From: Candidatus Eiseniibacteriota bacterium
GTDB taxonomy: Bacteria; Eisenbacteria; RBG-16-71-46; SZUA-252
Direction of reading: 5' to 3'
DNA length: 9,859 bases
NCBI GenBank assembly: GCA_031370645.1
Contig: JANMQV010000157.1
Coordinates: 1-9,859 of the forward strand
Below, piece after piece: positions 6,001 to 9,000 of the stretch; position 1 is the first letter of the stretch, and each line of letters begins with the position of its first letter. Made by a program: the position numbers.

Positions 6001-9000
6001 ACACCTTCTAGATCGATCGCGGCAAGCATTCCGCAAGATTACTCGGATCGGGTTCCGAGGTCAAACGGGGTGCGCTCCACGATGGAGAGCGCACGTTCCT
6101 CGTCGCGAATCCGAAGGGCGAGGAGGAGCGCGTTCGCAATCCCCATGGCTAGGGCGGTACGCCAGGCGCCGAAGAGGAGCGGCAACGCCGCCAATTCGAG
6201 CACGACGCCGAGATAGTTTGGATGCGCGAGGTAGCGGTAGAGACCGCGTCGGACGCGCCTCTCGCCCGGCACGACGTAGAGGCGAGCGGTCCACCGGTCG
6301 CCAAGCGTGCGCATGGCTCCGGCACGGAGGCCTTCTCCCACCATCCAGAGCGTGAGCCAAAGGAGCCAAAAATCCCCGGGGCGAGTCCCGCACCCGACGA
6401 CCTCGGCGATCAACGCGAGGGGGAAGACGGCGTGTAACGCGATGAAATAGTGGAAGCGCACGCCCGGCGCCTCAAACCCGCCGCGCGAGCGGAGTCGAGC
6501 CTCGTTTCGCGCGGAAGCCTTTAGCTCCAGCACACGGCTAGCCGCCAAGAACGCGAGCGCGGCAGCGAGCGCGAGCGGGACGGTCGGCAAGGCGCTTCGC
6601 GACTACGCGGGGACGCCGCGCATCAGGACGTATTCGGCGGAGAAGCCGGGGCCGAGCGCGGTCAGGAGCGCCCGCTCTCCCGGCGCGATGGCCCCGGTTC
6701 CGAGAAATCGCTCCAACACGAAGAGGCAGGTAGGGGACGACATATTGCCCCGCTCGCGGAGAATGTCGCGCGAGTGACGGAAGGCCGCGGCCGGAAGCGA
6801 GAGCGCCTCTTGGTACGCCTCCAGCACCTTCATGCCGCCCGGGTGCGAAACGACGTGCGCGATCTCCGAGAGGCGCATCCGCTGTCGCTCGAGGAAGCGA
6901 TCGACGCTCTCCCGCACCCACCCGCGGACGATTGCGGGAATGTCGCGTGAGAAGACGACGTGGAGCCCGTCGCCGTCGGTCTCCCAACCCATGACGTCGA
7001 GCGTGTCGGGCCAAAGCATGCTCCCGCTCGCTTCGATCTCGAGCGTCGTGCCTCCCCGTCCGTTCGCGGCGCGCGTGGCGCCGGCGGGATCCGTCGCGAC
7101 GACCGCCGCGGCGGCCCCATCGGCGAAGAGCGAAGCGGCGACAAGATTCCGTTTCGAGCGCTCGCGACGCTGGAAGGCGAGGCTACAGATTTCGACCGCG
7201 ATGAGGAGGATGCGCGTTCCGGGTGACGCGACGGCGAAGTCTCGGGCCCGGGCGAGGCCGGCGGCGCCCCCCGCGCAGCCGAGGCCCCAGATCGGGGTCC
7301 GCCTCACGTCGGAGCGCAACGACATGCGGTTCGAGATCGTGGCGTCGAGACTCGGCGTGGCGATTCCGGTGGAGGAGACGAAGACGACGTGGTCGACGTC
7401 GCTCGGAGTGAGTTCCGCCTGCTCGAGCGCGTGGGCGGCGGCCTCGGTGGAGAGCGCAACCGCCTGCTCGATATAGTGTTCGTTTCGCTCTCCGAACGAA
7501 TGATCCGCAGCGTACCACTCGAGCGGCATGCAGAGCCGTCGCGTTTCGATCCCGCCGTGGTCGAAGACCGGAAGGAGACGGCTCCAATCGCCGTTCGATT
7601 CCCCGCCGCCCGATCCATTCGAGAGGAGCGTCGCCAGGAGCGCCTTCGCGTCCTCTTGCCGCGCCACGTGCGACGGCACCGCGGTGCCGAGCCCGAGGAG
7701 GCGCGCGACGGTCATGGGACCACCACGAGCACTCCCCTCATCCCCTTCTTGGCGTGGCTGCCCACGTGACAGAAGAACCCGTATTCGCCGGGGTTTTTGG
7801 GCGTGAAGCGGACGACGTGCGTGCGCTTCCGGCCGACGCCCTGGCTCAGGCTGATCGTCGAGTCGGAGATGGAGAAATTGTGCGGGACGACGAGCGAGTG
7901 ATTGTGGAGCGTCAGCTCCACGGGGCGCCCGGCGTGAACGACGATCCGATTCGGCTCGAAGTAGAACGAATGGAGTTCGATCTTCGCGCGTTGCACGCCC
8001 GAGGCGTCGGCGCTCAGCTCCAGCGTTTGAACGGGGCGCGGCCCACCGGAGGCGCAACCGAACGAAAGCGCCGCGAGAAGGGCGAGCGAGAGGGCGATTG
8101 GAGCGATGCTGGGGGTGCGGCCCATAATGTTCTAGATCCTCCTGGATCGAAAAAGAGGGAGGGGAGAGCCGTACTGACCCTCCCCTCGATTTCCTCCGGA
8201 TGGCGGTTGGGATTCGCCAGGCCCGCCACGGCTAGAGCGCACGATGACGCGACTAGCTTCCGCCACCTCCGCTGAGTCCGATTTTATGCACTGGACCACC
8301 TCCTTTCCGCGATACCTAATTTTTCGGCCGATCATGTCGCTAGGTCAACCGGAAAAATCGTTCGGCCCTCAAGATAGTTTGTGAATTCGTTCACGTGCGG
8401 GAGGCCGTCGCGGCGCTCATCCGCTCTAGAATCATGCGCGCAATCTCGTCGCCGCAGGCTTCCTGTGCCTCGCGGGTCGAGGCGCCGATATGGGGCGACG
8501 CGACCATGTTGGGCAGCGACAGAAGCGGGATCGCCCCCGGGGGCTCCGCCGCGAAGACGTCGAGCGCCGCGCCGGCCAACTGCCCCGACTGAAGCGCCGC
8601 CACGAGTGCGGGTTCATCGACAAGGTCGCCCCGAGCGGCATTCACCAGCACCGCTCCCTTCTTCATCGATCCGATCCGCTTCGCGTCGAACATCCGCTTC
8701 GTCTCGGGAGTCACCGGGAGGTGAAGCGTCACGACGTCGGCCTGCGCGAGGAGTTCCTCGAGCGTCACCGGCTCGGCGCCCACGGCCCGAACGGCGGTCG
8801 CGGCGACGAGCGGATCGTAGCCGATGCAGCGCATCTCGAACGCGATCGCGCGCCGGGCGACTTCGCGGCCGATCTTCCCCATGCCGACGATGCCGAGCGT
8901 TTTCCCGCGGAGTTCACAACCCATCAGTTTCGACTTGAGCCACTCGCCGCGGCGAAGCGACGCGTCGGCCTCGGGGAGTTTCCGGAAGAGCGAGAGGAGA

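Follow-up and report, generated by a model that had tools for sequence, protein, structure and literature searches.

Two Rfam families describe the RNAs closest to the locus examined here. RF02471 (Ms_IGR-5), with a gathering cut-off of 45 bits, was found in Mycobacterium smegmatis and is labelled 'Actinobacteria sRNA'; RF01867 (CC2171), with a cut-off of 75 bits, stems from Caulobacter and is a family of the Alphaproteobacteria. Passages of published work report Ms_IGR-5 as validated by RNA-seq in Streptomyces lividans (PMC8079986), as an sRNA forming a transcription unit of its own in S. avermitilis (PMC8780764), and as showing ribosome footprints in both Mycobacterium abscessus and M. smegmatis (PMC4974804), and parts of a preprint describe CC2171 as detected by Northern blots in Methylorubrum, and as expressed with no function assigned in those parts (bioRxiv 10.1101/2022.01.24.477521). 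Our search of the literature returned no paper on the 5' sequences of the sRNA and, PMC4974804 and preprint supplements aside, no functional study of Ms_IGR-5, RF02471 or CC2171.

The window, by which we mean the whole 9,859-nt stretch of DNA analysed, spans contig C33:1-9859, in whose coordinates all positions are given; every feature of the sRNA unit lies on the minus strand. Comparison with related genomes supports the prediction of a discrete, conserved, structured and single-copy small transcription unit at 8313-8150, with the following outline.

8150..8313, minus strand: small RNA of about 164 nt that runs from its predicted start through the T-tract, delimited by BLAST and model matches
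8319..8348, minus strand: Sigma-70-type promoter (TTGACC at 8348-8343, an 18-nt spacer, AAAAAT at 8324-8319), from a promoter search
8150..8187, minus strand: intrinsic terminator, a 12-pair stem at 8187-8159 with the tail CCUCUUUUU at 8158-8150, from terminator prediction and model helices 8 and 9

These coordinates, the promoter site and the 12-pair stem agree with the preliminary description of this locus, which had proposed a minus-strand unit of about 164 nt with its own TTGAC promoter and intrinsic terminator. The promoter is the sole promoter-like site within 7600-8900 (mean among shuffles, 0.0); TTGAC is invariant in the 28/28 family loci that retain upstream sequence, and relatives beyond the family carry TTGACA and TAGNNT at an equal distance from the conserved block. 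The conserved block of the sRNA itself begins exactly at 8313 (ATCGCGGAAAGGAGGTGGTCCA), identically in 30/30 family loci, and BLAST and model matches in relatives start at 8313 and end at 8148-8152. The T-tract of the terminator is TTTTT at 8154-8150; both-sided changes occur in 7/7 pairs of helices 8 and 9, and at least four T follow the hairpin in 25 of the 29 complete family loci. The minimum free energy (MFE) of the sRNA has a z-score of -3.4, with 0/200 shuffles folding equally well, and in the fold of the free RNA the terminator tail is paired with Shine-Dalgarno (SD) bases 8307-8299. Contigs from four RNA libraries (three studies) cover 8135-8301, which speaks for presence only; none lies over 7900-8134 or 8329-8537, where missing contig cover proves nothing, and since one contig extends upstream into the promoter region of a relative, DNA carry-over or read-through is possible in these libraries. 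The contig ends at 8299-8301 are probably assembly breaks at the invariant block.

The source genome holds one copy of the sRNA. That most family genomes yield one BLAST match, given earlier as 34/36, is borne out in 38/41, and covariance model R1, which was built from the family, identifies the RNA in 69 of 151 phylum genomes (previously 70/151), the unpublished G054 among them. A wide distribution in the phylum is thus supported, and the signature is present, too, in records whose titles name Acidobacteria, Gemmatimonadota, Methylomirabilis, Nitrospirae, Planctomycetota, Myxococcales and Rhodobacteraceae.

The relation to Rfam appears only through relatives. When the whole stretch is searched at gathering thresholds no family reaches its cut-off, and RF02471 finds no match in the whole source genome at E up to 10. 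CC2171 scores 20.6 bits against this sRNA (E 0.02 for the region, 0.039 genome-wide), which is the best CC2171 match of the source genome and is aligned over the full-length model, with 102 positions in the middle of the model unaligned. The CC2171 5' consensus is GAAAGGAGGUGAUCCAGUG and the matching stretch here is GAAAGGAGGUGGUCCAGUG; together, these sequence matches suggest homology with CC2171. Loci of the same class found by R1 (L076, L078, L079, L081, L089 and L091) reach 49-62.5 bits with RF02471, against the cut-off of 45, and RF02471 is at or above that cut-off in 11/151 phylum genomes; at 27-43 bits, its matches coincide with those of R1 in a further set (G070, G075, G048, G116, G088, G050, G146 and G069). 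A nhmmer profile built from six RF02471-passing relatives recovers 8307-8195 in a search of the whole stretch (E 6e-6). Of 20 loci found by the signature pattern, four score at or above the RF02471 cut-off; the titles of the passing records name Methylomirabilis, Gemmatimonadota and Acidobacteria. The order of blocks in RF02471 (extended SD; GAGGUG..GCUAG; GCGAAUYCC..CAG..CACC; terminal hairpin) is present in this sRNA, and the nhmmer alignment extends over these blocks. The statement that the RNA matches no Rfam family therefore holds for this copy, whose best score is 20.6 bits, but not for its kind, whose relatives pass RF02471; nor can the RNA be called a new kind, as had been proposed, since same-class relatives reach the RF02471 cut-off and the CC2171 consensus has the same 5' start. 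Because this copy fails both Rfam cut-offs, membership of RF02471 rests on intermediates. Taken together, 8313-8150 is very probably a divergent member of a multi-phylum superfamily, of which Ms_IGR-5 is one part in Rfam and CC2171 probably another. Our overall reading, to which we assign a probability of roughly one in two, is that of a stand-alone, translated 'ribosome-docking' sRNA of this known superfamily that would work as a translation-gated switch.

The 5' part of the RNA combines three elements.

8293..8307, minus strand: extended Shine-Dalgarno GAAAGGAGGUGGUCC, complement of the 16S rRNA 3' end, invariant in 30/30 family loci
8253..8291, minus strand: mini-ORF, GTG at 8291-8289, 12 codons (MHKIGLSGGGGS) and TAG at 8255-8253, by reading of the sequence
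8275..8297, minus strand: small hairpin in the MFE fold, GGUCC at 8297-8293 with GGACU at 8279-8275 and the start codon in its loop

As the 16S rRNA is unassembled in the source genome itself, its 3' end was taken from two family genomes, which read GGAUCACCUCCUUUCU; with the 3' end GGAUCACCUCCUUUC the extended SD forms 15 pairs, one of them G.U. The 15-nt anti-SD complement described earlier is thus real, but it begins at RNA position 7 and not at position 1, leaving the SD 6 nt from the predicted 5' end; the start codon follows 1 nt after it. The extended SD is common to the RF02471 and RF01867 consensus sequences. In relatives, a UGGA or UGGAYC partner of the small hairpin at 8275..8297 was noticed by eye. 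In one subgroup the SD is preceded by about 110 nt of conserved sequence; the anatomy is therefore non-uniform, and the SD not always 5'-proximal.

Downstream of the SD, selection appears to act on an open frame. The mini-ORF starts with GTG or TTG in relatives, comprises 12-17 codons, and retains its start, frame and stop region; its indels measure 3, 6, 9 or 15 nt, and the start-to-block distances in the family (22, 28, 31, 34 and 37 nt) are all equal modulo 3. In the frame of the start codon, 0/181 distinct sequences have a stop ahead of the end of GAGGTG, against early stops in 91/181 and 104/181 in the +1 and +2 frames. The earlier proposal that the mini-ORF is kept open despite a differing peptide and two frames of reading is thereby upheld in 181/181 distinct relatives, and a frame-preserved mini-ORF with an extended SD and a non-conserved peptide is supported.

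This frame conservation bears on a rival explanation, in which the extended SD would serve to bind 30S subunits, either as a stabiliser, the bound 30S shielding a regulatory RNA from 5' decay, or as a decoy that titrates them, and translation of the frame would be incidental. The STAB-SD of Bacillus thuringiensis cryIIIA mRNA is reportedly such an element, a long SD-like 5' stabiliser that pairs with the 16S 3' end, and the likeness is clear in so far as both are unusually long, 5'-proximal, SD-like sequences complementary to that end. Complementarity over 15 nt far exceeds the needs of translation, the 6-nt distance from the predicted 5' end is found in the family and in a sister group, and the pairing of the SD with the RNA's own 3' tail would close both ends of the free RNA. 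Here, however, a start codon and a selected frame follow the SD, and the strength of frame selection (0/181 early stops, in-frame indels, compensating shifts between lineages) is such that incidental translation is not expected; furthermore, the SD is not 5'-proximal in the subgroup with about 110 nt of conserved upstream sequence, and bulk titration of 30S subunits would require an abundance that no result here indicates. We regard this explanation as unlikely.

In our preferred reading, a translated sRNA that acts as a switch, the 3' half of the mini-ORF would take part in alternative structures, which involve the following elements.

8260..8270, minus strand: segment 1, GGAGGUGGCGG, an SD-like stretch within the 3' half of the ORF that supplies the 5' side of the long helix (model helices 3 and 4)
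8216..8257, minus strand: central hairpin in the RNAalifold consensus, GCUAG of the stop block (8257-8253) with CUGGC (8220-8216) or CUAGC (8235-8231)
8222..8228, minus strand: segment 2, GUGGCGG, which locally repeats segment 1 and is its alternative as a partner for segment 3 (constrained fold)
8206..8215, minus strand: conserved unpaired block GAAUCCCAAC, nearly invariant in the family
8198..8205, minus strand: segment 3, the 3' strand CGCCAUCC, which resembles an anti-SD and has segments 1 and 2 as alternative partners

Across 70 sequences, in an alignment that is fitted to the model and in which one subgroup is visibly ill aligned, pairing holds in 95.8% of cells and 27/35 pairs have changed on both sides, many of these changes tracing to few lineage splits; 0/500 shuffles score as high, in line with the earlier claim of covariation above all 500 shuffles, and slid controls are 41-48% paired. 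Both-sided changes affect 4/5 pairs of helix 4 and 10/10 pairs of helices 5 and 6, in the region of the central hairpin, which encloses an inner hairpin. In the MFE fold of this copy the stop block is paired with CUAGC at 8235-8231 instead of CUGGC. A search for long-helix partners succeeded in 163/190 sequences (control mean 105, maximum 124, over 200 permutations), a test on which we do not rely because its rule, which allows G.U and takes the first match, is too permissive. The preliminary description placed the 3' half of the ORF in a long covarying hairpin; that helix does covary, but it has a local competitor between segments 2 and 3, a hairpin that forms when the ORF is constrained to be single-stranded. 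Among sister-group sequences, a fit to segment 3 is seen for segment 2 in 14/14 and for segment 1 in 12/17, with an A.C mismatch in the ORF pairing in 5/17. These models indicate that segment 3 (8205-8198) can adopt two mutually exclusive partners, 8270-8260 and 8228-8222. The same strand in Rhodobacterales relatives is CACCUCC, the anti-SD sequence itself, and a recognisable counterpart of the GAAUCCCAAC block, AAYCCNARC, is seen in other phyla as well as in the RF02471 consensus. Pairing between the conserved loop and 16S rRNA was considered and set aside, as no complementarity above 7 nt is present in the one family 16S sequence compared.

As to how such an RNA might work, we tentatively propose a translation-gated switch. 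The extended SD would capture a 30S subunit, and the ribosome would translate the mini-ORF, melting the ORF strand as it arrives at the stop codon inside the structure; segment 3, the 3' strand, would then re-pair locally, and the GAAUCCCAAC block would be presented differently. If so, the shape of the RNA would report its translation status, with an output at the level of RNA or ribosome, either by pairing in trans or by feedback on its own SD, rather than through the peptide or a fixed downstream gene. More speculatively, and in our view improbably, Ms_IGR-5, CC2171 and this RNA could be one ancient multi-phylum RNA that senses free ribosomes or translation capacity. In that case, docking over 15-17 nt of the 16S 3' tail, translation of a dozen codons and internal SD and anti-SD mimics would make each passing ribosome flip a bistable helix, and the anti-SD-like strand and GAAUCCCAAC block so exposed might act on the ribosome-binding sites of other mRNAs or on the RNA's own SD. 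Such an RNA would be a housekeeping, ribosome-coupled regulator, overlooked because neither E. coli nor B. subtilis has it.

The genomic neighbourhood invites a different reading, in which the RNA is a cis-acting leader of the genes that follow it.

8391..9329, minus strand: upstream neighbour, a short phosphoglycerate-dehydrogenase-like 2-hydroxyacid dehydrogenase (Pfam 2-Hacid_dh_C, E 5e-63)
7712..8125, minus strand: cupredoxin-domain protein, downstream neighbour in the window's genus only, from domain search and neighbourhood comparison
5412..6029, minus strand: thrH (phosphoserine phosphatase/homoserine phosphotransferase), the ancestral downstream neighbour (NCBIfam NF010109, 208 bits against a cut-off of 133)

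The product of 8391..9329 scores 358 bits with NCBIfam PGDH, under the cut-off of 454. Most of the 30 family loci contain, in order, a class-V aminotransferase, the PGDH-like gene, the sRNA, thrH and purA. In the other three genera of the family thrH directly follows the sRNA; in the window's genus three other genes separate the two, an inserted cassette (cupredoxin, type III PKS, ICMT) of which 7712..8125 is the first. Beyond the family, the genes that follow are either unrelated or convergent with the sRNA; the nearest one is convergent, and validated by Pfam, at L067, L070, L076, L079, L081 and L089. The earlier remark that downstream genes are not conserved is accordingly accurate beyond the family, but not within it. 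Because the downstream genes are so often convergent outside the family, we consider the sRNA a stand-alone unit.

Within the family, the sRNA could nonetheless be a leader or attenuator of thrH-purA, in which stalling on serine-family codons tunes read-through of the terminator. The mini-ORF ends Ser-Gly-Gly-Gly-Cys/Gly-Ser (SGGG(C/G)S in the family) and lies inside a serine-pathway cluster; thrH starts 17-21 nt past the T-tract in one genus, leaving no space for a separate promoter; and the T-tract is lost at three loci (L009, L021 and L031), at the second of which the thrH ATG directly abuts the hairpin. The Ser and Gly codons, however, are what one frame of the conserved GGAGGUGG block yields, and in a group with that frame (L061-L063) the neighbours are YchF and an FMN riboswitch with ribD instead of serine genes. 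By eye, the sRNA contains no antiterminator segment complementary to the terminator, whose hairpin is kept in the MFE fold as well as in three constrained ones. As for a regulated operon downstream, the RNA precedes thrH-purA within the family and convergent genes at the six loci named above. The serine-family attenuator was rejected on these grounds of a lacking antiterminator and a differing context elsewhere, and appears distinctly unlikely. A related precedent is rnTrpL/peTrpL of Sinorhizobium, said to be a leader-peptide attenuator that also acts in trans; it resembles the RNA described here in being a small transcript that carries a translated leader frame and a terminator, can pair in alternative ways and can exist as a unit of its own, and differs in that here no regulatory codon run is common to the lineages, no antiterminator was found and no downstream operon is conserved beyond one family.

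That the locus simply encodes a functional micropeptide (12-17 residues) is highly improbable, despite its strong SD, conserved start, open frame and a peptide that looks conserved within single orders (in Rhodobacterales, for instance, MSRxxLERGVGT, and across several phyla xWTxEV), as the GGAGGUGG block, read in two frames across lineages, encodes Gly-Gly-Gly in the window's family and Glu-Val in others, the N-terminal residues and the length vary even inside the family, and conservation tracks nucleotides and helices. A Csr/Rsm-type sponge that titrates CsrA through GGA motifs (about eight in 164 nt, counted by eye), although the source genome encodes CsrA (PF02599; C131:99439-99594, 92.7 bits), was rejected as very improbable in view of frame conservation, which it would leave unexplained, of the control genomes, of which 1/14, presumably Caulobacter as the genome in which the family was defined, exceeds the CC2171 cut-off whereas E. 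coli, B. subtilis and T. maritima are the sole controls positive in the CsrA search, and of the placement of the GGA motifs mostly in helices or the SD rather than in hairpin loops. Nor is the RNA a tmRNA: ARAGORN finds nothing in the whole stretch, and the tmRNA of this genome lies elsewhere, as previously noted, on C212 (169.9 bits).

A translated, ribosome-docking sRNA thus remains our preferred reading. It adds no new RNA class, and instead places the RNA of a candidate phylum in a family that has entries in curated databases only for Actinobacteria and, separately, for Alphaproteobacteria, with the same signature found in records of eight or more further named lineages. An expressed, ribosome-bound sRNA that is kept across many phyla and has no assigned function is a worthwhile target, and as its carriers include cultivable organisms (Caulobacter, Streptomyces, M. 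smegmatis and Rhodobacterales), the question is directly testable.

Compared with the described systems, the RNA is most like Ms_IGR-5, in which a 5' GGAAGGAGGUGGUCC, a short frame started by UUG or GUG, and GAGGUGNCUG...GCUAG occur in the same order as here, followed in the 3' part by a central hairpin, GCGAAUYCC...CAG..CACC and a terminal hairpin; according to a passage of PMC8780764, it too is a stand-alone sRNA unit. It differs from Ms_IGR-5 in the distance between SD and start (about 6 nt in the Rfam consensus, 1 nt here), in the other frame in which the conserved block is read, in a shorter central hairpin, and in belonging to another phylum than the actinobacterial sRNA. With CC2171 it shares the consensus start cAAcaAucGAAAGGAGGUGAUCCAGUG, the same extended SD and GUG, and Rhodobacterales copies possess a frame of 18 codons, a terminator and an internal GAGGUG that pairs with a CACCUCC strand; the score of 20.6 bits, against a cut-off of 75, sets this sRNA apart. 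The logic shared among these RNAs is that of an extended SD, an open frame kept independently of its peptide, and SD- and anti-SD-like strands with alternative pairings.

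The RNA occurs once in the window's genome (3.0 Mb in 247 contigs, 95% complete), and its promoter is the only sigma-70-like site within 7600-8900. The surrounding interval, 5412-9857 on the minus strand, seems to be a complete gene cluster for the phosphorylated pathway of serine with the RNA inside it, followed by purA:

9339-9857, minus: class-V aminotransferase, partial (serine-pathway cluster)
8391-9329, minus: PGDH-like 2-hydroxyacid dehydrogenase gene, 3' end at 8391, upstream of the promoter
8348-8319, minus: sigma-70-like promoter, TTGACC 8348-8343, 18-nt spacer, AAAAAT 8324-8319
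From 8313, minus: predicted RNA 5' end, AUCGCG-GAAAGGAGGUGGUCC-A-GUG, read from the sequence
8291-8253, minus: mini-ORF of 12 codons (MHKIGLSGGGGS), stop TAG 8255-8253
8187-8150, minus: terminator 3' of the structured region, stem of 12 pairs 8187-8159, TTTTT 8154-8150
Start 8125, minus: cupredoxin-domain protein gene with its own AGGAGG, next gene downstream of the RNA
5412-6029, minus: ThrH phosphoserine phosphatase (serine-pathway cluster)
3958-5256, minus: purA, downstream of the serine-pathway cluster

The 181-nt stretch folds better than 200/200 shuffles (z -3.4). Of 41 family genomes, 38 gave a match, and most of these matches begin at query position 38 (window 8313) and end at 8148-8152. 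The 30 family loci share identical first 22 nt of the RNA and an invariant promoter TTGAC, with GTG or TTG as the family start codon. At least four T lie 3' of the hairpin in 25 of 29 complete family loci, the others having three (L011) or none (L009, L021, L031). R1, a covariance model of 21 family sequences, matched 69 of 151 sampled phylum genomes (one of them the unpublished G054) and 28 of 72 genera, all within one class. The preliminary description of the RNA was accurate and the numbers reported for it were reproduced: this is a genuine, well-conserved feature. Several assemblies break inside or beside the RNA (G015:C99:1-164, G015:C77:4-159, also G004:C15, G026:C72 and G025:C208), and in genome G015 two contig ends overlap within it; the assembly graph may break at an invariant block common to strains or species that occur together. 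In one genome, an ISL3-family transposase (L096, 3240-4088) lies directly downstream of the RNA.

The 16S rRNA is unassembled in the window's genome, and 3' ends were taken from two family genomes; as these read GGAUCACCUCCUUUCU, positions 8307-8293 can form 15 pairs with them, one a G.U. In the free-RNA fold, SD bases 8307-8299 are paired with the RNA's own 3' tail, CCUCUUUUU. In many relatives, about 15 nt of the 5' block (window 8292-8306) match a widely used universal 16S reverse primer, so the RNA gene could be mis-primed in amplicon work. Sequences covering 8135-8301 with 1-3 differences occur in four metatranscriptome runs (three studies) and, being contigs, are evidence of presence only; one relative's contig extends into promoter-like sequence.

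In a model-fitted alignment of 70 sequences, itself fitted to the structure and visibly poor in one subgroup, pairing is seen in 95.8% of cells and both-sided changes at 27 of the 35 pairs; many of the changes trace to lineage splits. No shuffle of 500 came up to any of the measures, and slid partners gave 41-48% paired. The anti-SD-like 3' strand 8205-8198 (CGCCAUCC) has two possible partners: GGAGGUGGCGG at 8270-8260, the SD-like half of the ORF, and the local repeat GUGGCGG at 8228-8222. When the ORF is constrained to be single-stranded, the local hairpin forms with GAAUCCCAAC in its loop. The 17 sequences of a sister subgroup vary at a position that is A/G in both 5' partners and U/C in the 3' strand. 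Here that strand is fitted by the local partner in all 14 sequences where this partner was found, and by the ORF partner in 12 of 17, the remaining five having an A.C mismatch. The long covarying hairpin described for the ORF half is therefore a supported state, but one of two. One subgroup of the class (L075, L080, L082-L088, L090, L092-L098) carries a conserved 5' extension (about 110 nt, lying 5' of the SD block) that comes with a TTGAC promoter of its own and contains a GC-rich hairpin as well as a second one, GGGAGGGUUGGGUCCCUCC, whose loop is complementary to a downstream ACCCAAC/ACCCAGC block, so that a pseudoknot is possible.

The reading frame was followed in 181 distinct sequences: the family supplied 32, other members of the class 34, and a pattern scan, which fixed SD, start codon and GAGGTG and left the frame free, the remaining 115. 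With counts inflated by relatedness, the start-codon frame stayed open to the end of GAGGTG in every sequence and stopped within 33 nt beyond it in 177, the other two frames being closed early in 91 and 104. Length differences within the frame across the 30 family loci are 3, 6, 9 and 15 nt. From start codon to block, family members measure 22, 28, 31, 34 or 37 nt, each equal to 1 mod 3; of the other class members, 32 have 18-30 nt (0 mod 3) and two have 37 nt. The block is consequently read GGA-GGU-GGC in the family and GAG-GUG-GCU elsewhere. Indels that keep the frame, together with a frame change that is compensated, point to selection acting on the passage of the ribosome and not on the peptide.

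The docking sequence, a frame under selection, covarying helices and two alternative partners of the anti-SD-like strand are the demonstrated elements on which we build a tentative mechanism, one we hold to be possible rather than probable. The extended SD would capture 30S, a brief translation run would melt the ORF strand, and local re-pairing would alter the presentation of GAAUCCCAAC and the anti-SD-like strand; the output would lie at the level of RNA or ribosome. The same docking sequence would serve a stabiliser or decoy that binds 30S, a reading that is in our estimation unlikely.

That the RNA is a cis leader of thrH draws on gene order, which is kept in the family as class-V aminotransferase, PGDH-like gene, RNA, ThrH (208 bits against NF010109, cut-off 133) and purA. 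This order contradicts, at family level, the earlier statement that downstream genes are not conserved, and makes a cis role possible within the family. In the window's genus alone, a three-gene cassette (6039-8125, minus: cupredoxin, a DpgA-like type III polyketide synthase below cut-off, and an ICMT-family methyltransferase) separates the RNA from thrH, which in other genera lies directly 3'; in one genus it starts 17-21 nt past the T-tract. Outside the family, however, neighbours are unrelated, the nearest downstream gene being convergent and Pfam-validated in six loci, and the terminator hairpin is kept in every constrained fold. Our reading is therefore that the RNA stands alone as a unit, and we consider a leader quite improbable. 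At five loci in two families (L061, L063, L064, L066, L073), an FMN riboswitch (95-113 bits) lies directly 3' on the same strand, with a Pfam-confirmed ribD after it in L063, L064 and L073. Among the loci that have lost the T-tract (L009, L021, L031), L021 (1501-1690) has the thrH ATG 7 nt past the hairpin, and there the RNA is probably, judging from this placement, the 5' untranslated region of thrH. A micropeptide gene would also keep its frame open, but selection on passage rather than peptide makes it highly improbable, and a CsrA sponge is barely credible. The window's genome has a CsrA gene (L002, G000:C131:99439-99594; PF02599, 92.7 bits), whose open frame, at 117 aa, is roughly double what is usual for CsrA.

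To call the RNA new and unmatched was an overstatement. The window reached the cut-off of no Rfam family, its best match being CC2171 (20.6 bits, cut-off 75, aligned along the full-length model), whose best match across the whole genome is this same RNA; but six R1 loci from other families of the class pass RF02471, Ms_IGR-5 (49-62.5 bits, cut-off 45). RF02471 reaches cut-off in 11 of 151 phylum genomes; at eight more R1 loci it hits identical coordinates with 27-43 bits. A profile of the six passing loci matches window 8307-8195 with an E of 6e-6, computed on the window and about 300 times weaker at whole-genome scale. From these sequence likenesses we consider the RNA, with a probability of roughly 0.85, to be a divergent member of an sRNA kind that is already known though uncharacterised, that of Ms_IGR-5.

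A scan for the SD-start-GAGGTG pattern, with one genome per species, returned at least 120 loci. Among the matches listed, Rhodobacterales are the majority, and further titles include Acidobacteria, Terriglobia, Vicinamibacteria, Holophagales, Gemmatimonadota, Nitrospirae, Planctomycetota, Methylomirabilis, Myxococcales, Bdellovibrionota, Krumholzibacteriia and Candidatus Eisenbacteria, the last (L118) with a family-type sequence. Four of the 20 loci checked against Rfam pass RF02471 (Methylomirabilis 67.7 bits, Gemmatimonadota 57.5, two Acidobacteriota 51.6 and 47.7), five more score 28-41 bits, and one from Planctomycetota matches RF02471 and CC2171 weakly alike. In Rhodobacterales copies, the 3' strand CACCUCC is the anti-SD sequence itself, paired with an internal GAGGUG. 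The RNAs were reportedly first described by Li et al. in 2013 and Landt et al. in 2008, and our literature searches found no functional study of Ms_IGR-5 or CC2171 RNAs. Ms_IGR-5 is validated by RNA-seq in S. lividans (PMC8079986); in S. avermitilis, two sRNA transcription units match Rfam and it is one of them (PMC8780764); and ribosomes leave footprints on it in both M. abscessus and M. smegmatis (PMC4974804). CC2171 is among the families given an improved structure in Rfam 15 (PMC11701678). The true breadth of this kind of RNA across phyla is the more interesting result. Its likeness to Ms_IGR-5 lies in shared blocks visible in the Rfam consensus lines, and that to CC2171 in a consensus that starts GAAAGGAGGUGAUCCAGUG.
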